From a virus, in the IMG/VR virus record IMGVR_UViG_3300025785_000013, positions 19,478-83,477 of that record: DNA of 64,000 bases, one strand, 5' to 3'. Position numbers and translations under genes: made by a program. Shown here piece by piece: positions 19,418-61,736 of this stretch. The stretch's first letter is position 1; each line of letters begins with the position of its first letter. The notes under the pieces were generated by a model, which made no database searches, was not told where the DNA came from, and saw nothing but the letters and a program-made list of their open reading frames with translations.

Positions 19418-19690
19418 ATGGCAGCGCGGAAAACGCAAGGCGTGGCAGACCTCGCTCTCACCTACGAATGGGAGAACGTTGAGGAATGGGATGGCCTCGT
19501 CAAGGGTGACCTCGTACTCGTCAAGGGCGAGCGTGGTGATTGGCGTTTCCAATGGGCTAAGGTCAAAGATGGCGAAGTCACTGAGGTGACTGTCCACGGT
19601 GGCCCCAATGGTCACGGCTCGTTCCGAACGTTCTTACCGAACCGGGTCAGCAAGCCAAAGGTCAGGAATCGCAGGCCTGCCAAGGCGTAG
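19418..19690 (+). CDS. small beta-rich (SH3-like) protein, paralog of 41324..41611
   Basis: EW.G..KG.LV.V.G...RF......DGEV.EVTVHGG..GH.S.RTF shared with 41324..41611. Confidence 0.75.
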   Translation: MAARKTQGVADLALTYEWENVEEWDGLVKGDLVLVKGERGDWRFQWAKVKDGEVTEVTVHGGPNGHGSFRTFLPNRVSKPKVRNRRPAKA

Positions 19691-55476: not shown

Positions 55477-55533
55477 GGTGAAATCCACTACCCCTGTGAC
55501 TGAACCGGTATTCGTGTAGTAGGGTTTCCAAAT

Positions 55534-55677
55534 GTGGAAGAAGTTGATGACCCTACCGACGAGAACGGCTACTGCCCCGTCTGTGGCCCACGCCATTTCT
55601 TTTTGTCCGGCCCTTGGTTTCACCAGCAACACATAGAAGAAGCCAAGAAGCGACATCCATCCAATCCCCAGCAGTGA
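55534..55677 (+). CDS. small CxxC protein (47 aa)
   Basis: Own translation: MEEVDDPTDENGYCPVCGPRHF... Confidence 0.5.
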   Translation: MEEVDDPTDENGYCPVCGPRHFFLSGPWFHQQHIEEAKKRHPSNPQQ

Positions 55678-55702
55678 AATCCCTTTACCCCCTAGGAGAA
55701 CA

Positions 55703-55966
55703 ATGACTGAACCCGTGACCCCACTCCCCGAACGCCAGCCGATGGATGAAGGCTTTTCAGCAGAGGTCGCTGCACTTCTGAGCCACATCAAGGATGTCTG
55801 CAAGCAGATGCGTGAACACGAGAAGGCAGTTATTTCACTGGGCGTAGAGCGTCGCCAGACCGTCACCCGTCTCCGCGAACACGGCGTGACGTGGCGCAAG
55901 ATTGCTGAATGGGCAGGCACGACTGACCAAGCCCTGTACAAGCACCACAACCGGGAAACTAAGTAA
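55703..55966 (+). CDS. helix-turn-helix DNA-binding protein
   Basis: RLREHGVTWRKIAEWAGTTDQALYK; AGGAG RBS. Confidence 0.8.
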   Translation: MTEPVTPLPERQPMDEGFSAEVAALLSHIKDVCKQMREHEKAVISLGVERRQTVTRLREHGVTWRKIAEWAGTTDQALYKHHNRETK

Positions 55967-56004
55967 TACTTGTAGTTGTCACAACCCTATGCTAAAGTGG
56001 GGTT

Positions 56005-58956
56005 ATGCCGACAAGTGAGTTGCTAGCCAAGGCTGTCCAGTATCTCGCTGCCAACTGCGATGGTGCGGTTCAGCAAGATGCCAAGGGGTTCAATGGCCCC
56101 GACAGTCGGTTCGGTAAGGCACTCGCAGCAATCTCCCCTGAAGCGTGGAGCGAAGGTTCCCAGCGTGAAGCGTGGGAGATGCTTTCCAAGTACCGAGGCC
56201 AACTTGCTAGTGGTGGAATTGACTACGACGCTATTCCTGAGCCGTCAAAGGTCAAGGGCCAGAAGTTTGTCCGTGCCGTTGACGTAAAGGCTGGCAAGAT
56301 TCTCGTCTTCCTGCCGTATGGTGATTCGGCGTATCCCAAGGGTGCGCTCAACGCTATGTGGAACCGTGAACTGCGAGGTTGGCAGGTTTCGGTCAGCAAG
56401 TACGGCTCGGTGCTGGACTGGGCGAAGCAGAACAACGTCCCGGTCACGGAGCGAGCCAAGGCGTTGCTGGAAAGTGCGCCCAAGCCAGAACACCCCGACT
56501 ACATCGGTAAGGCAGTATTCCGCAACGGCGAAATCGTGATGGCGTTTGACTACAACCCATCGCTCGTAGATGCTGTGCGCTCAATTCCGGGTCGTAGGTG
56601 GAATGGCGTAGACAAGACGTGGGTTGTCCCCAAGGAGACGGTCAGCATCGTTCGCAAACTGGCGAGCGACTACAACATTGAACTGTCCAAGGGCGTGTTG
56701 GAACTGCCTGAGGTAGAAATCACCACCGGGCCAAAGATTTCGGTTCAAGGCCGGGACTTCGCTATCTCGTTCACCTACGACGCTCAACTGCTCAGCGCAG
56801 TGCGCCAGATGCCGGGTTCGTCGTGGTCACCAGCATTACGGACTTGGGTTGTCCCCATCGAATCCGTAGACGAAGTGCTGAAATTCTCCAAGGAGTTTAA
56901 CGCTGCAATGTCCCCTGAGGCAGTGCGCCTCGTTGACGAAGCCAGCATCGTACAAGAAATCATTGAAGCCTCGGCTGCCAAAGATGCCCAAATCACCATC
57001 AAGGGATTCGGCAGTGAAACACTGCAACTGTTTCCGTTCCAACGTGCCGGGGTTGCCTATGCACTGCGAGCAATGGGATGGGAACACACCAGCGAAGGCG
57101 TGTGGGAGCGCACGAAGAACACCGGTGAAGGTGGGGTCATCGTTGGTGATGAAATGGGCCTCGGCAAGACCTGTCAGGGCCTTGGAATTTTGCAAGCCAC
57201 CCAATCGTTTCCAGCAGTCATTATCTGCCCGGCAAGCCTGAAATTCAACTGGGAGCGTGAAGCCCACAACTGGTTAGGAGAGGCCGGAACCGTCATCCTT
57301 GAAGGAACCACGAAGCCTAATCTCCGCCTGAGCCTGCCTCGCTCGGTCTTTCTTGATGAGCAAGTAAGGTTCCAACTTTTCAGAAAGATACAAGACATCA
57401 AGTTGACGAGCGACGACCCAACCGTATTGAGTTCGCTTCGTAGGGAAGCGCGGCTCCTTGACGAACGTGCGAACATAACTGCGACCACCAAAACTGGAAA
57501 GCCAGTCCATCAAACCCTTGTCAGTGTTGTAAACGACAATAGTCCAAGCCTTGCCGGATTTGGAAATGCTTCCCTCGCCATCAACGATTCCAGCGATGTA
57601 TCCGAGTTGGGCAATATCGTCCGGCAGGTTCAGGGTGCGACCCTCAAATCGCCTATTTCTCGGCTTGGGGTTGGCGAAGTTGTCCAGTCGCTTTTGGAAA
57701 GCAGCGACATTGTGGACGTATCCGGGGAAGTCCTTGACGATTTCGTTGATGTTGTCGCCTCGTTCTCGTCTGGCGACGGCGTTGGCGAGTTCATCAGTGC
57801 TGTATCTAATGCTCATCCCATCATTATAATCTGCAACTACGACATTCTGACCCACTGGGTAGAGCGTTTCACCTCAGTGAAGGGCATCGTGCTAGACGAG
57901 AGCCACTACGTCAAGAACGGCGCAGCCCAGCGTTCCAAGGCAGCCATCAAGTTGTCCGACAAAGTGGTGGAAAACGGCGTTCGTGTTTGCCTGTCCGGTA
58001 CGCCTATCGTCAACCAGCCGTTGGAACTGATGACCCAACTTCGCATCGTTCACCGACTGGATGACTTTGGTGGTGCATCGTCATTCCGCAACGTCTACGG
58101 CAGAGCCAGTGCGAAAAGCCTCGCATCCCTCAATCGCAAACTGCGCTCAATGTGTTATGTCCGGCGCAGGAAGGCTGACGTGCTGACCGAACTGCCACCA
58201 AAGCGTTGGAGCAGCGTGGTGGTGGAAGGCGACGCAGCCGTGATGAAGGAATACAAAAAGGCAGAAGCCGATATTGTGAAATACCTTTCACAACTTGCAA
58301 TGCAGTTTGCCTTGGAATCCGGGGCAAGTTCAGAGGAAGCCCGCAAAGAGGCGTGGATGAAGGCACTCCGAGCCAGAGCAGCAGAGCAACTGGTCGCAAT
58401 CAGCACCCTGAAGCAACTGGCAGCGAAGGCCAAGATGAAGGTCGCCAAGCAGTGGGTAGAAGACTTTCTCGCCAACGACAAGAAACTCGTGGTGTTCGGA
58501 TGGCATCGCACTGTGGTGGATGACATTGCCGTCAACTTCGCCAATGGGGTCAAGATTCAAGGTGGAATCTCGTCAGAGAAGCGTCAAGAAGCCGTTGACC
58601 TTTTCCAAAACTCCGACGAACAAAAAGTCATCGCTTGCAACATCAAAGCAGCCGGAGTGGGACTGACCCTCACGGCAGCGAGCGACGTGCTGTTCATCGA
58701 ACAGGGGTGGACACCGAGCGATATGGAGCAGGGCGCAGACCGTTGCCACCGTATCGGCCAGAAGGACAGCGTGACCGCTTGGCTAATGCTCACGGCAGAC
58801 ACGATTGACGAAGACATCGCAGCCCTGATTCAGCACAAACGCTCCATCGTGGACAGGGCTATTGACGGCACCGACGAAGATGAAGACGAGGAAGGCTCAA
58901 TCGTTGGTGATTTGCTTGTCAGCCTCGCAGAGCGTGGGTTGCAACAGACTAGTTAA
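56005..58956 (+). CDS. SNF2-family (HARP/SMARCAL1-like) helicase with ~165-aa in-frame insertion
   Basis: GDEMGLGKT, PASLKFNW, LDESH, LSGTPIVN, GVGLTLT, QGADRCHRIGQ; repeated IPGRRWN/MPGSSWS HARP-like N-terminal domains. Confidence 0.92.
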   Translation: MPTSELLAKAVQYLAANCDGAVQQDAKGFNGPDSRFGKALAAISPEAWSEGSQREAWEMLSKYRGQLASGGIDYDAIPEPSKVKGQKFVRAVDVKAGKILVFLPYGDSAYPKGALNAMWNRELRGWQVSVSKYGSVLDWAKQNNVPVTERAKALLESAPKPEHPDYIGKAVFRNGEIVMAFDYNPSLVDAVRSIPGRRWNGVDKTWVVPKETVSIVRKLASDYNIELSKGVLELPEVEITTGPKISVQGRDFAISFTYDAQLLSAVRQMPGSSWSPALRTWVVPIESVDEVLKFSKEFNAAMSPEAVRLVDEASIVQEIIEASAAKDAQITIKGFGSETLQLFPFQRAGVAYALRAMGWEHTSEGVWERTKNTGEGGVIVGDEMGLGKTCQGLGILQATQSFPAVIICPASLKFNWEREAHNWLGEAGTVILEGTTKPNLRLSLPRSVFLDEQVRFQLFRKIQDIKLTSDDPTVLSSLRREARLLDERANITATTKTGKPVHQTLVSVVNDNSPSLAGFGNASLAINDSSDVSELGNIVRQVQGATLKSPISRLGVGEVVQSLLESSDIVDVSGEVLDDFVDVVASFSSGDGVGEFISAVSNAHPIIIICNYDILTHWVERFTSVKGIVLDESHYVKNGAAQRSKAAIKLSDKVVENGVRVCLSGTPIVNQPLELMTQLRIVHRLDDFGGASSFRNVYGRASAKSLASLNRKLRSMCYVRRRKADVLTELPPKRWSSVVVEGDAAVMKEYKKAEADIVKYLSQLAMQFALESGASSEEARKEAWMKALRARAAEQLVAISTLKQLAAKAKMKVAKQWVEDFLANDKKLVVFGWHRTVVDDIAVNFANGVKIQGGISSEKRQEAVDLFQNSDEQKVIACNIKAAGVGLTLTAASDVLFIEQGWTPSDMEQGADRCHRIGQKDSVTAWLMLTADTIDEDIAALIQHKRSIVDRAIDGTDEDEDEEGSIVGDLLVSLAERGLQQTS
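57274..57816 (-). mobile_element. LAGLIDADG homing endonuclease gene nested antisense within the helicase
   Basis: LGYIAGIVDGEGSI, VYNTD..LM.WL...GG, Y.W, L.PYL.IKK.RA; TATAAT 6 nt upstream of ATG 57816. Confidence 0.85.
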
Positions 58957-59207
58957 ATCATTTCTGCTTCAGCAGACAGGTTCTTTGCCTTGGCCGAAGC
59001 GTCGTGGGCCTGCTTGTACAGAACCTTGGCGTTAGCCTCATCACCACTGGCGTAGGCGTGTGCAGCACGTTGCCAGAGTTGGCCAGCCTGAATGTGAGCC
59101 TGAGCAGCCTTTTGGAATCGCTCGCTTGCGAGGTCGCGACCACTCCAGCGGTCGGCCTTGGCGACCCAACGAATCAGGGTATCGCTAGTGAAATCAGACG
59201 CATCCAT
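58953..59207 (-). CDS. small Ala/His-rich helical protein with degenerate tag
   Basis: MDASDFTSDTLIRWVAKA; AAQAH/AAHAY/QAHDA repeats. Confidence 0.7.
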   Translation of the reverse strand: MDASDFTSDTLIRWVAKADRWSGRDLASERFQKAAQAHIQAGQLWQRAAHAYASGDEANAKVLYKQAHDASAKAKNLSAEAEMI

Positions 59208-59239
59208 AGATACCAGAGTATCGCAGGGTGCTGGAATTC

Positions 59240-59926
59240 CTACTTGTTCTCGTCGCTACCAAGAACGGCCTGAGCAGCGCGCCACAGGGCTTCTTCGTAC
59301 TTCAACTGGTCGGGCTTCATCTTTGCCTTGGCAGCGTCACGAATTGCCTTTTCATCAGCACTCTTGGTCACGTTCTTCAACTCCATTATGTGGTAGTCGG
59401 GGGTGCCAAACTTTTCGTAGTCCCAGTCGCTGGGAGCGTACTCCTTGTTGAACGGCATCACCTCGGTATCTCTAAACCCCAGTTTACCATAGACTTGGGG
59501 GAGATGCTCACCGAAACACTCAACGTAGTTCACCCCGTGGTTCTTAATGGCATCGTGCAGCATTGCAGCACCACTGCCACTCACGCCCTTGGAGAACAAA
59601 GCCGTGGCTTCGATTCGACCATCACCGTGGTCGTGGATGAGGCAGCCGGTTCGACCATCCGGGGACAGAAGCGGGGTCATCTTCTCGGCCTTAATTTGGG
59701 CGAGGGTGTAGTGATTCACGAACGCAGAGTAGGGATTTCCCTTGAACGCACTGCTGAAAGCCGACAGGAATTCCTTGGGGCTAGTCACTTTGGCGTTTGG
59801 AAACCCACCTTCACCAGTCCGGTATTGGTTCCCACGAAACGGGTGGCCGTCGAAATCGCCCTTGGAAACCGGGTAGGCAGAAAGAGATTTCAGCAGTGAT
59901 GCAGTTGTGAATTCGTCGCCACGCAT
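59240..59926 (-). CDS. GHxFxGNQ-tag protein with GNAT-like domain
   Basis: FTTASLLKSLSAYPVSKGDFDGHPFRGNQY; ALFSKGVSGSGAAML...VECF...LPQVYGKLGF. Confidence 0.8.
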   Translation of the reverse strand: MRGDEFTTASLLKSLSAYPVSKGDFDGHPFRGNQYRTGEGGFPNAKVTSPKEFLSAFSSAFKGNPYSAFVNHYTLAQIKAEKMTPLLSPDGRTGCLIHDHGDGRIEATALFSKGVSGSGAAMLHDAIKNHGVNYVECFGEHLPQVYGKLGFRDTEVMPFNKEYAPSDWDYEKFGTPDYHIMELKNVTKSADEKAIRDAAKAKMKPDQLKYEEALWRAAQAVLGSDENK

Positions 59927-59958
59927 ACTGCCAAGATTACTTTAGTTTTGTAAATGCC

Positions 59959-60105
59959 TTACTTCGGTTCAGCAGTAAGGGAGCCGACATCATCCAAGTC
60001 GCAGGCAACGGCCTTGTTCTTGTGCCGGAAATGGTTTGGAGTGGTGGAACCGGGGACAATGCGCTCAATGCTTGCCCCGCAATTTCGACAACGCAGTTCA
60101 GTCAT
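59959..60105 (-). CDS. small zinc-finger protein (MTELRCRNCG...FRH...C)
   Basis: Own translation, 48 aa. Confidence 0.6.
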   Translation of the reverse strand: MTELRCRNCGASIERIVPGSTTPNHFRHKNKAVACDLDDVGSLTAEPK

Positions 60106-60143
60106 TTCTTCACTCTACCTCAGTCAGTGAAATGTGTCTAGGG

Positions 60144-61736
60144 TCAATCGTCTTGTGGCTCAGCAGCGATGTTCTGGGCTGCCTCGGTTGCTTCGTCTGC
60201 CTTTTGGGAAGCATCAGCAGCAGCAGTAGAGGCGTAGCGACAGTTCCCCATCGAATGGTGAGTGGATGGGGTTGCACCTTCCACCTTCGTGTTGGCAAAC
60301 GCAGCAGCATCGTTGATTCGACCAGCCGTGTAGTGCGCTTGCATTGCATCTCGGTGTGCAACGGAAGCCTGCATCCACGCACGAGTGGCAGCGTTGTCAA
60401 CATTGCCGTTTTCACCACGCAGTTTGTACGCCAACGATTGGAGTTGGTCGGCCATATCTTGATGTCTAATTCCGTATCCAAGGTGGAATCCACCCATCGC
60501 CCGGAAATCTACAGGTGGGGTGTCGAACTTCGCCAGCATCTCTTTAGCGTGAGGGCCGTAGTAGTCGGTTTCCACCATCTTCGTCACAGGCATTGCCTTT
60601 TGGTTGATGGTTGCTTGGAGCGCAGCATTGGAAGCCCGTGCAGCCATTCCAGCAAAAGCGTGAGCCTTATCCCCGGTCAGAGCATTGGAAGCAATAGAGC
60701 CACCCTCAACGGGTCGGATAGCGTCAATCTCGTCAGCAGCCTCGGTGTGGGCAGTTGCAGCGTCACGATGCTTCTGAGCAGCATCACCAGTCAGTTGTGA
60801 TGCCAGAGCCGAGTGTTCAGCAGCCAATTTCCGGTGGGCAGCAGCCGAGCCGGACAGGTCGCCATCGGTGGAAACCCGAAGTGAGTTTGCCTTTTCTGAC
60901 AGCAGCGAAGACTTGTTGCTCGCCGGGTTGTTGCCAACTTTGGAAACGGGGTAGTTGCTCAGGGGTCGCAGTAATGCCTCAACAGTGAAATCCTCAGCCT
61001 TGATAATGGTTGGCTTGGGATTTGGAAGGGCTGCGATTTTGGCTGCGCTTTCTGCTGAAAATCCCTCTAACCCACGGTCATTAAGCCTTTTAATGCCTAA
61101 CATTTCGTGATAGGGATGGCTGTCGGCTGTCGTTTGGTAGGTCATCGTCAACCCCTTATCGGCTGCCATCTGAATCGCCTGCTCCATTAGTGCCGTTGCA
61201 GCACCGGGCATCTTCCCGGTTGAGCCGAGGTAGCCAATGCTGGCTGATGGAAGTATCGGGCCGCTACCGTCGCCCAAGCGTATGTCGGGAGAGTGAATGG
61301 CAACATTTACAGCAGCCACTATTTCGTTGTTTTTGTTGCGAGCAACAAACAAGTGCGATGAAACGATTTGGTTGGGGTTGATTTCACTATTTGCAGCCCT
61401 GAAGTTGGCGTGGGCATACATTGCTGCTTCCCCTAGAAAGCGGATGCCTTGCTGATGGCGAGCGTCCATTGCCTTGTATTCTGGCGTTTCTCGCATTTCT
61501 AGGAATGTGTGGTAAAGGTCACTTATCTTGTTTTCGTTGTCTACGCGCTCAATTTTTCCACCAGCGTCGTAGAACTCTTTGAGGTTCCTTTGGAACGCAG
61601 CGATGTTGGCAGGCATCTCTCCACCCTGACCACCAGTCCACTGATTCCCGTGGAAAACGTGGCCCTGAACGTCGCCTTTCACCACTGGGTAGCGAGCAAG
61701 CCCTTGAAGTAAGGCGTTTGTAGTGAAATCAAGCAC
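60144..61736 (-). CDS. GHxFxGNQ-tag multi-domain protein: GNAT-like plus Ala/His helical repeats, internal second tag
   Basis: FTTNALLQGLARYPVVKGDVQGHVFHGNQW; IGYLGSTGKMPGAATALM...PYHEMLG; internal EDFTVEALLRPLSNYPVSK. Confidence 0.82.
   Translation of the reverse strand: MLDFTTNALLQGLARYPVVKGDVQGHVFHGNQWTGGQGGEMPANIAAFQRNLKEFYDAGGKIERVDNENKISDLYHTFLEMRETPEYKAMDARHQQGIRFLGEAAMYAHANFRAANSEINPNQIVSSHLFVARNKNNEIVAAVNVAIHSPDIRLGDGSGPILPSASIGYLGSTGKMPGAATALMEQAIQMAADKGLTMTYQTTADSHPYHEMLGIKRLNDRGLEGFSAESAAKIAALPNPKPTIIKAEDFTVEALLRPLSNYPVSKVGNNPASNKSSLLSEKANSLRVSTDGDLSGSAAAHRKLAAEHSALASQLTGDAAQKHRDAATAHTEAADEIDAIRPVEGGSIASNALTGDKAHAFAGMAARASNAALQATINQKAMPVTKMVETDYYGPHAKEMLAKFDTPPVDFRAMGGFHLGYGIRHQDMADQLQSLAYKLRGENGNVDNAATRAWMQASVAHRDAMQAHYTAGRINDAAAFANTKVEGATPSTHHSMGNCRYASTAAADASQKADEATEAAQNIAAEPQDD

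Follow-up and report, generated by a model that had tools for sequence, protein, structure and literature searches.

The window analysed here is a 64,000-nucleotide stretch of viral DNA (positions 19,478 to 83,477 of IMG/VR record IMGVR_UViG_3300025785_000013). Within it, a long helicase gene on the plus strand encloses a gene for a homing endonuclease on the minus strand. The features of the locus, in window coordinates, are given below with the evidence for each.

56005..58956, plus strand: SNF2/HARP-type helicase ORF, uninterrupted with the insert included, 983 aa (Pfam, AF2, copies on 15+5+3+1+1 contigs).
57274..57816, minus strand: LAGLIDADG homing endonuclease gene, 180 aa, with its stop at 57274-57276 (homologues, profile, AF2).
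57274..57319, no strand assigned: C-terminal tail of the endonuclease (RGSFKDDGSGLS-stop) overlapping helicase-homologous sequence (LGEAGTVILEGTTKP) (alignments).
57320..57819, plus strand: antisense-derived peptide of ~166 codons between ...LEGTT(KP) and IIIICNYD (alignments, AF2, no Pfam family).
57565..57606, minus strand: LAGLIDADG motif LGYIAGIVDGEGSI, endonuclease residues 71-84 (family alignment, profile).
57673..57798, minus strand: N-terminal three-helix HTH DNA-binding module, endonuclease residues 7-48 (AF2 helices 7-18, 23-28 and 37-48).
57814..57816, minus strand: endonuclease ATG, polymorphic (ATA in contigs L004 and L005, 57814 C>T).
57823..57828, minus strand: TATAAT -10-like hexamer, 6 nt before the ATG, formed by the helicase Ile codons ATT-ATA-ATC.

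The host protein matched the Pfam families SNF2-rel_dom (5e-30) and Helicase_C (3e-11). It passed a test for SNF2 motifs I-VI, since GLGKT, DESH, SGTP and DRCHRIGQ are all present, and every residue that is invariant across 23 helicases is kept. The AF2 model has two RecA-like lobes, and its core resembles ISW1, CSB and SsoRad54 (Foldseek, E 1e-19 to 1e-20). No close DNA relative of the gene was found in the phage GenBank collection.

A reading made earlier from the sequence alone had noticed about 165 extra residues in the helicase. Alignment with insertion-free homologs agreed, with 166 residues in place of a loop of ~9 (GNLPDADVY in empty alleles), and placed the junctions at GTT-KPNLRL and SNAHP-IIIICNYD. 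About 30 helicases that are 68-85% identical to that of the window are without the insert; their sequence at this point is GTT-GNLPDADV-YIINYD, that of the window GTT-KPNLRL...(166 aa)...SNAHP-IIIICNYD. From Walker A to motif II the window helicase has 246 aa, the empty alleles 84-86 aa. Both an insert-bearing contig (L005) and an insert-free one (L010) were obtained from sample 3300000439. Judged by these alignments, the segment containing the endonuclease is an insertion, with empty alleles in the closest relatives.

The insertion falls in a loop of RecA-like lobe 1 that is flanked on one side by the strand following motif Ia (..V.VL.GT.) and on the other by the strand preceding motif II (..IINYDIL..). 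Within the insert, AF2 gave a pLDDT of 28-58, versus 80-93 in the flanking RecA-like core, and predicted low-confidence helices without a beta-rich Hint-like fold. The peptide matched no Pfam family at E<=1, one noise match aside, and a word-based protein search with it returned only its own protein. The flank at 57274..57319 is atypical compared with the consensus of the relatives, W[IL]Pxx.VKVLxGT[ST]G. MAFFT paired LPRSVFLD of the window with LPRLLWAD of Arthrobacter phage helicases. This pairing was rejected as coincidence because the stretch is the antisense of a conserved C-terminal helix of the endonuclease (IKKDRARQA) and closer relatives do not support it.

The minus-strand ORF spans 57274..57855 and opens at an alternative in-frame start, GTG at 57855; a start at the ATG (57816) yields the protein of 180 aa. 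The sequence-only reading had described a 180-aa single-motif LAGLIDADG protein on the opposite strand, with codons aligned to those of a stop-free plus frame and a stop lying in helicase-like sequence. This description was upheld in each part. Family homologues, profile and AF2 support the protein; positions 56005 and 57274 leave the same remainder (1) on division by three, which puts the codons of the two genes in register, and the 983-aa ORF is uninterrupted; read on the helicase strand, the endonuclease stop (57274-57276) is TTA, the Leu codon of ...NW-L-GEAG. At its C-terminus the endonuclease runs on past the ends of its homologues by 12-15 residues, which lie over helicase-like sequence.

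There are 1404 representative homologues of the endonuclease, 152 of them at E<=1e-10. The window protein alone scored 19.1 bits against Pfam LAGLIDADG_3, below the cut-off of 22.5; the same family was matched by 44/71 relatives. A profile of the endonuclease family matched I-MsoI (7e-9) and I-CreI (1.5e-7), and the motif aligns to YIAGFLDGDGSI of I-MsoI. Among 71 family members, the motif (IAGIVDGEG in the window) has an invariant D79 and a nearly invariant E81, which satisfied the test for acidic residues; the catalytic acidic residue and the lysine of PYL.IK are conserved in the family. The AF2 model (pLDDT 90.4) has an alpha-beta-beta-alpha-beta-beta-alpha core (H68-81, E82-87, E90-97, H100-107, E112-116, E130-135, H138-151), and Foldseek matched it to I-CreI with a probability of 1.00, E ~1e-5 and a TM score on the target of 0.56-0.58. 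Family members also matched HTH_23, HTH_7 and HTH_38. We conclude that the minus-strand ORF is a genuine single-motif endonuclease of the I-CreI type with an N-terminal HTH, presumably acting as a homodimer because it has a single motif. Cleavage and homing are supported only indirectly, being inferred from the sporadic distribution, the common site in four helicases (below) and the empty nearest relatives. Some searches with the endonuclease gave little: tblastn against the phage GenBank collection produced no match at 1e-3, and a word-based protein search returned only 2 relatives.

The signals that would express the endonuclease are less clear. A TATAAT box 6 nt before the ATG, matching a leaderless layout used elsewhere in the window, had been part of the sequence-only reading. 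The box is there, and a looser TANNNT ending 5-9 nt before predicted gene starts is enriched (12/71 genes versus a background of 2.1%). The exact TATAAT-N6-ATG layout at 57814-57828 occurs nowhere else in the window, and 26/100 shuffles of the window contained at least one such match, so that it is not significant alone. The leaderless promoter is thus only weakly supported. The ATG is lost in L004 and L005 and the start codon is unclear in L196 (described below), so some copies of the endonuclease may be decaying.

An assembly inversion or chimera at the junctions would have undone the earlier interpretation. The 983-aa protein and its variants were found on 25 contigs (15+5+3+1+1) from JGI, ENA and Logan, two of which, L004 and L005, are 99.76% identical over 6.2 kb. 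Since the insert-bearing protein is present on 25 contigs from several sources, the insert is not an assembly chimera. The insert-bearing variants differ at four amino acids (L505P, D511E, V532I and H604Y), all in the insert. Among the same variants the 817 core residues show 0 amino-acid differences, and the core nucleotide changes (at 56331, 56721, 58275 and 58908) are all third-position synonymous. This pattern may reflect purifying selection on the core after insertion, an inference that rests on just four synonymous changes. On that same narrow basis the window helicase gives no sign of being a pseudogene, which was the other ground on which the earlier interpretation could have failed.

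No splicing element was recognized. Rfam yielded no intron family between 55500 and 59500 at E<=1, between 57200 and 57900 at E<=10, or in L164 and L196 at E<=1, and at E<=10 the window insert matched no Rfam family of any kind. Pfam detected no Hint/intein domain in the proteins of the window, L164 and L196. The window insert starts K/P and ends ...NAHP followed by Ile, and lacks both a Cys/Ser start and a His-Asn end. The residue after the insert is I in the window, V in L164, L in L196 and I in L277, and is never C, S or T. The endonuclease ORF covers 57322-57816 of the insert (57320-57819), leaving no room for a ribozyme core, and it fills the helicase inserts with 0-30 nt to spare. In the cases scanned, the junction residues, the Pfam and Rfam results and this filling bear out the earlier statement that the insert has neither intein ends nor space for a ribozyme, and no recognizable intron or intein element came to light that would refute it. 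L022, by way of contrast, has a real intein at GLGK|T, ending HN|T.

A search for other antisense LAGLIDADG genes inside open phage genes, which the sequence-only reading had suggested, identified three more SNF2 helicases (L164, L196 and L277) with homologous endonucleases that are antisense, in register and at the same site as in the window. The endonucleases are at 32-38% identity. The L164 helicase, the only one of the three for which this was measured, is ~33% identical to the window helicase outside the insert; L193 and L194, which are relatives of L164, are empty. In all four helicases the host frame across the endonuclease is stop-free and the length of the insert is divisible by three. 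In the window, L164 and L196 nothing interrupts that frame between the start and the stop of the helicase. The L277 helicase has an in-frame TAA inside Walker A, and an open frame opposite the endonuclease can therefore coexist with a possibly broken host gene. The insert peptides read in the host frame are only 21% identical between the window and L164. An endonuclease tree (FastTree, 130 columns) was poorly resolved and did not resolve the helicase-resident copies as one clade. A metagenome scan for close relatives of the endonuclease found only the known contig and L196, and a genome scan found only distant relatives, none of which had a long antisense ORF enclosing it at both ends.

Whether the in-register frame opposite the endonuclease (the mirror frame) is open by chance was assessed by computing the expected number of stops, and the probability of finding none, from local codon usage. 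For a gene of the size and composition of that in the window, in this phage, the probability is 0.04-0.08. Taken alone, the open frame of the window is weak evidence and would not prove selection. Local codon usage gives the window a P of 0.04-0.07. In L164, 6.5 stops were expected and 0 seen (P 6e-4); for L196 and L277 the expected numbers were 2.3 (P 0.09) and 7.1 (P 3e-4), again with 0 seen. The joint chance of four open frames is ~1e-9, if the four count as independent. Comparison across the four helicases makes the evidence strong, and mirror-frame stops are strongly depleted. The codons TTA, CTA and TCA, which are stops on the opposite strand, are never used by the window endonuclease and are avoided in all four copies. 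As a baseline, the mirror frame is open in only 4/80 family members from bacterial and archaeal genomes, and 0/12 co-oriented members among low-GC viral loci are depleted.

Depletion is also found among relatives in capsid genes, where 29/61 low-GC loci have zero stops and 4-14 are expected. Endonucleases of the same family lie antisense in the capsid-gene insert, with conserved, non-coding-like flanks of ~250-290 nt. No Rfam intron was found in these relatives at E<=0.1 (L114, L120, L123, L151 and L152) or E<=10 (L127). In the capsid-gene element the mirror frame is open and has its own ATG, yet it is not contiguous with both capsid exons. An open mirror frame may therefore be selected for reasons other than the continuity of the host protein.

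We propose that a LAGLIDADG gene of the free-standing type entered, by homing, the coding sequence of an SNF2/HARP helicase gene in a phage, on the opposite strand and in register. Because the endonuclease uses no TTA, CTA or TCA codon, the helicase would be translated straight through, translation being inferred. It would carry ~160 extra, probably unstructured loop residues and stay functional, an activity that is likewise inferred, and neither RNA nor protein splicing would be involved. Signals of its own, with promoter and start codon both inferred, would drive expression of the endonuclease from the minus strand. In mixed infections, insert-free alleles would be cut next to the conserved NYDIL-coding sequence and the element copied in by repair. 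Translation through the insert, the activity of the helicase, and the activity and target of the endonuclease are all inferences, and we assign the explanation as a whole a probability of roughly 0.7. Splicing-free homing with a tolerated antisense-derived loop had been suggested by the sequence-only reading. Of the readings compared it is the best supported, though only indirectly, by the empty alleles, the recurrence in four helicases, the lack of an intron or intein and the synonymous changes in the core. A search for RNA sequencing runs covering 56800-58300 listed none, which bears on expression in neither direction. As no RNA, protein or biochemical data exist, the support remains indirect and an unknown RNA-level excision is not excluded.

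The mirror frame might be kept open for a reason other than a working helicase, the insert-bearing helicase being inactive or dispensable; for example, ribosomes translating ~500 nt of host-sense transcript could avoid Rho-type polarity or mRNA decay. The capsid-gene relatives, which keep a mirror ORF with its own ATG unjoined to both capsid parts and show extreme depletion, are in keeping with such a reason, as is L277 with its TAA in Walker A and its mirror frame still open. We nevertheless consider it unlikely for the helicases. The frames of the window, L164 and L196 are continuous, with inserts of a length that leaves the C-terminal half in frame, which protection from polarity alone does not require; moreover, the SNF2 motifs are all intact and the window core has 4 synonymous and 0 non-synonymous changes among insert-bearing variants. 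Removal of the insert by unrecognized RNA or protein splicing, for instance by a ribozyme overlapping the antisense coding sequence, deserves mention because divergent introns can escape Rfam models and the conserved flanks in the capsid-gene insert could be seen in that light. It seems to us very improbable: an intron needs neither a stop-free host frame nor a length that is a multiple of three, and all four helicases have both, the endonuclease ORFs leave almost nothing spare, and the Rfam scans and intein hallmarks were negative as described above.

Chance combined with a filter on arrival would require only that an endonuclease with an open mirror frame landed in frame once or a few times, the open frame not having been maintained since. 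The probability for the window alone does not rule this out, the mirror frame is open in ~5% of the family's members from cellular genomes, and the near identity of the insert-bearing window variants makes that insertion recent. What leaves this reading very little room is that four copies at 32-38% identity are all stop-free, two of them in phages of 41-50% GC where 6.5-7.1 stops are expected; with nearly every codon replaced at that identity, inheritance alone cannot hold the stop count at zero. The helicase might have taken over the antisense-derived peptide as a functional domain, an argument for which is the retention of the peptide in four lineages, always at the same surface position. 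This we find hardly credible at all, given the low pLDDT and the absence of a Pfam family. The 21% identity of the window and L164 peptides is roughly that to be expected from conservation of the endonuclease encoded opposite them, all four amino-acid changes among near-identical variants fall in the peptide, and the nearest relatives live without it.

Beyond the window, it is somewhat better than an even bet that two-strand coding has evolved in a LAGLIDADG lineage as a general substitute for introns and inteins. Without TTA, CTA and TCA, its members would sit backwards and in register in essential phage genes, SNF2 helicases and perhaps capsid genes, where they would be translated as harmless loops, with selection maintaining the arrangement across deep divergence. 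Four deeply diverged copies at one conserved helicase site, with three stop-codon mirrors avoided, are evidence of simultaneous selection on two strands, which no single case could have supplied. If true, homing elements would have a third means of residing inside coding sequence, in addition to RNA splicing and protein splicing. Nested endonucleases would then be systematically missed, because annotation programs keep the long host ORF and leave out the gene nested in it. The helicases would allow the constraints of dual-strand coding, and the tolerance of RecA-like ATPase lobes for large loops, to be studied in a clean natural system, and the endonucleases with their conserved helicase target would be directly testable as new meganuclease scaffolds.

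Homing endonucleases are usually said to persist in genes only by means of self-splicing introns or inteins, or else between genes. Free-standing phage homing endonucleases such as T4 seg and mob practise intronless homing, and T4 39/60 and Aeh1 nrdA are genes split by endonuclease insertion. The window endonuclease resembles these in having inferred expression signals of its own, no splicing element, and a presumed spread by cleaving endonuclease-free alleles and co-conversion; free-standing endonucleases, however, sit between genes or split the host into two ORFs, whereas the host ORF here is single and continuous. It shares its fold and motif with I-CreI, I-MsoI and I-CvuI of group I introns (profile 7e-9 to 1.5e-7, Foldseek 1.00), but has an extra N-terminal HTH, no intron, and an orientation antisense to its host gene. 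A cyanobacterial dnaX intein with an out-of-frame LAGLIDADG endonuclease (bioRxiv 10.64898/2026.09.14.751524) also has overlapping frames, the endonuclease frame being under purifying selection and the host frame relaxed but open. That element, unlike the one in the window, is a true intein that splices out, with its endonuclease on the same strand in the +2 frame. Methylases of cluster F mycobacteriophages contain an in-frame 'lone' LAGLIDADG domain (Gosselin et al. 2023, PMC9957025), again within a phage gene and without a detectable splicing element. There the endonuclease is translated in sense as a folded domain of the host protein, whereas in the window the mirror strand would be translated, as part of the host, into a peptide that is not a domain.

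Among published cases the nearest is the 'hidden' HNH endonuclease, on the same strand, of mycobacteriophage DNA methylases, known from the ShiLan domain and the Pacc40 insertion (Arsenault, Gosselin and Gogarten 2025, PMC11855218; Gosselin et al. 2023, PMC9957025). Like the window, ShiLan has a homing-type endonuclease within a phage gene that is present or absent among relatives, a stop-free host frame, no detectable intron or intein, and a host-frame peptide predicted to be a tolerated loop; leaderless initiation of the endonuclease is discussed in that work as well. The text of the ShiLan paper contains none of the terms 'antisense', 'opposite' and 'reverse strand'. The ShiLan endonuclease is an HNH protein encoded in another frame of the same strand of a methylase gene, whereas that of the window is a LAGLIDADG protein on the opposite strand, in register, in an SNF2 helicase gene, a layout that therefore imposes a different set of codons to avoid. 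ShiLan is one exception to the usual rule, same-strand and out-of-frame, and the window adds an antisense, codon-in-register LAGLIDADG version.

The window makes up the final 64 kb of a virus record in IMG/VR that is 83.5 kb long and has an estimated completeness of 69%. Two ORFs are considered here.

56005..58956, plus strand: helicase ORF, 983 aa, single and uninterrupted
57274..57855, minus strand: endonuclease ORF; an ATG at 57816 gives a 180-aa protein that includes LGYIAGIVDGEGSI

What the sequence-only reading observed at this locus was confirmed. The 180-aa minus-strand LAGLIDADG protein was found, and its codons are exactly in register with those of the helicase, since 56005 and 57274 both leave a remainder of 1 on division by 3. 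The endonuclease also ends inside helicase-like sequence as claimed: its homologues stop near residue 168-170, and the final ~12 residues (SFKDDGSGLS) are run-on into helicase-homologous sequence. The helicase stretch beneath this tail (57274-57319, W-LGEAGTVILEGTTKP) differs from what its relatives share (consensus W[IL]Pxx.VKVLxGT[ST]G), which suggests, on sequence grounds, a co-conversion tract or recoding to fit both strands.

Pfam domains found in the helicase are SNF2-rel_dom (5e-30), Helicase_C and, weakly, HARP. Foldseek with an AF2 model of residues 330-983 retrieved the solved SNF2 ATPases ISW1, CSB, SsoRad54 and Ino80 (E 1e-19 to 1e-20). Judging from alignment, the endonuclease region is an insertion into this protein. 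All of the ~30 helicases retrieved with 68-85% identity (812-829 aa) lack it, as do Arthrobacter phage helicases (~40% identical). Empty relatives read ...VKVLxGT[ST]-GNLPDADV-Y[IV]INYDILTHW, and the window reads ...TVILEGTT-KPNLRL...(166 aa)...SNAHP-IIIICNYDILTHW. The alignment thus bears out the ~165 extra residues reported earlier, at 166 aa. Walker A and motif II are separated by 246 aa in the window and by 84-86 aa in empty alleles. The insertion point is in RecA-like lobe 1, flanked by the strand that follows motif Ia and the strand that precedes motif II.

The insert is not an assembly artefact. Related loci from two other metagenomes, L004 and L005, carry the same insert and share 99.76% identity with the window across 6.2 kb, with a different upstream region. 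Counting four variants, the protein with the insert is recorded on 15+5+3+1+1 contigs drawn from JGI, ENA and Logan. An assembly chimera, named beforehand as a finding that would refute the splicing-free proposal, is ruled out by these loci and contigs. Sample 3300000439 yields both L005 and an insert-free locus, L010.

The minus-strand ORF is, by sequence and model, a real gene of the LAGLIDADG endonuclease family. Alone it scores 19.1 bits against Pfam LAGLIDADG_3, under the 22.5 threshold. When 1.84 billion representatives were scanned in full with HMMER, 1404 homologues reached E<=1e-3 and 152 of them E<=1e-10, aligned to residues 55-168. A 71-sequence family profile matched I-MsoI (7e-9), I-CreI (1.5e-7) and I-CvuI in the PDB; 44/71 members match LAGLIDADG_3, and many of the 71 match HTH families in their N-terminal part. 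In the AF2 model (pLDDT 90.4), residues 7-48 form an N-terminal module of three helices and residues 68-174 an alpha-beta-beta-alpha-beta-beta-alpha core, and Foldseek returned I-CreI entries at probability 1.00. D79, G80, E81, G82, W133 and K155 are invariant or almost so in the family.

A TATAAT box does lie 6 nt upstream of the predicted endonuclease ATG. This precise layout recurs nowhere else in the window, and the match is not significant alone (26/100 shuffles give at least one). A relaxed form, TANNNT with its end 5-9 nt upstream of a predicted start, is enriched (12/71 genes of the 83.5-kb genome versus 2.1% of random positions). SD-like motifs precede only 18/71 predicted genes; together these counts make a leaderless habit plausible. 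They fit a phage with many leaderless mRNAs and an actinobacterial host; the helicase's closest cultured relatives are found in Arthrobacter phages. Downstream of the helicase, minus-strand genes (58953-61736) converge on it, and one of them, an 84-aa ORF (58953..59207), extends over the helicase stop. Transcription continuing past this unit could also reach the endonuclease, which lies 1.1 kb beyond. L004 and L005 have ATA in place of the endonuclease ATG, the related locus L164 has an AGGA-N7-TTG start, and in another, L196, no start stands out; decay of some copies is possible.

The helicase retains every residue invariant across 23 helicases. All four amino acid differences among the insert-bearing variants (L505P, D511E, V532I, H604Y) fall inside the 166-residue insert and none in the 817 core residues, where the four nucleotide differences (56331, 56721, 58275, 58908) are all third-position and synonymous. 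This pattern would be expected from purifying selection on the core after insertion and none on the host-frame insert peptide; the numbers are small. The insert peptide has no Pfam family, and its AF2 pLDDT is 28-58 versus 80-93 for the flanking core.

Stops in the in-register antisense (mirror) frame correspond to endonuclease codons TTA, CTA and TCA, which make up 1.9% of codons in this phage (54% GC). The probability of no mirror stop is 0.03-0.04 for 166-180 codons at phage codon usage, or 0.04-0.07 when the Leu and Ser content of the endonuclease is taken into account, and within genes of the phage itself, 8% of stretches of 166 codons lack all three codons. Judged on the window alone, the open helicase frame barely exceeds what chance would give.

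A search for other antisense LAGLIDADG ORFs inside open phage genes was productive. Among loci fetched with endonuclease profiles are three further SNF2 helicases in which a homologous endonuclease occupies this site, again antisense and in register.

Further helicases with an antisense, in-register endonuclease
L164: GC 0.50; host ORF 819 aa; junctions ...AILGSK / insert / VAILIVNYDIL; mirror stops 6.5 expected, 0 observed, P(0) 6e-4
L196: GC 0.58; host ORF 868 aa; junctions ...GSFRWP / insert / LIILNHDIL; mirror stops 2.3 expected, 0 observed, P(0) 0.09
L277: GC 0.41; host 794-aa open stretch; junctions ...NLNK / insert / IIINYNIL; mirror stops 7.1 expected, 0 observed, P(0) 3e-4
Expectations use local codon usage.

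The helicase-resident endonucleases share 32-38% identity, the L164 and window helicases are 33% identical outside the insert, and two relatives of L164 (L193, L194) are empty. Given this divergence, the four copies would be effectively independent at the codon level, and if they are counted so the joint P is ~1e-9. As a baseline, the mirror frame is open in only 4/80 family members from bacterial or archaeal genomes, and stop depletion was seen in 0/12 low-GC viral members co-oriented with their neighbours. We infer from these codon counts that selection, beyond lucky arrival, is maintaining the open host frame.

Nothing in the sequences supports an intron or intein. No Rfam intron family matched 55500-59500 at E<=1 or 57200-57900 at E<=10, nor L164 and L196, and the endonuclease ORF occupies the whole insert in each case; the claimed lack of intein ends and of room for a ribozyme holds. 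RNA splicing would require neither a stop-free frame nor a length divisible by three. Canonical protein splicing is excluded because the insert starts K/P, ends ...AHP and is followed by Ile (V in L164, L in L196, I in L277). In contrast, a 76% identical helicase (L022:3001-6471, IMGVR_UViG_3300032236_001244) has a textbook 342-aa LAGLIDADG intein in Walker A (GLGK/...THN/T); the helicase thus serves as a target for two or more distinct homing elements, at two sites. At or beside that intein site, L277 has a 9-nt in-frame insertion with a stop (GDEMG-TAA-ATA-GLGKT; L277:3469-3471, minus strand) that divides its helicase into 122-aa and 770-aa ORFs, and may be a repair scar or mark a pseudogene.

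The main rival is that mirror-frame selection may have a cause beyond host-protein continuity, such as a need for ribosomes to stay on the host transcript. The family also occurs in a large capsid-gene element (L127:2766-3576, L151:2806-3541, L123, L152, L114 and ~35 more viral loci), antisense in a ~735-815-nt insert of the phage major capsid gene at or near ...NQDP/VLNE.... The flanks of this insert are conserved and resemble non-coding RNA; Rfam found no intron in the inserts of L114, L120, L123, L151 and L152 (E<=0.1) or of L127 (E<=10). Mirror stops are absent from 29/61 low-GC loci where 4-14 are expected, and depletion goes with antisense placement (34/41 depleted loci). In genomes of 34-48% GC the capsid-element mirror ORFs are stop-free, with individual P down to 3e-7 (six tested), yet they often have their own ATG and are not always joined to both capsid parts, which leaves such a cause possible. 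For the helicases, the comparative evidence supports a splicing-free reading, with the RNA and protein levels inferred only. We put our confidence in the overall explanation, an antisense homing endonuclease gene translated through without splicing by a helicase that stays functional, at about 0.7.

Literature searches found no published antisense, in-register endonuclease arrangement. The closest precedent in print is the ShiLan domain, an HNH in mycobacteriophage methylases across which the host is read through in frame, with no intron or intein (PMC11855218). The same line of work describes a lone LAGLIDADG domain in the sense frame (PMC9957025), and a 2026 preprint reports a dnaX intein with a +2-frame LAGLIDADG (bioRxiv 10.64898/2026.09.14.751524). 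The ShiLan HNH lies on the same strand as its host and out of frame (PMC11855218), whereas the LAGLIDADG gene of the window is antisense and in register.
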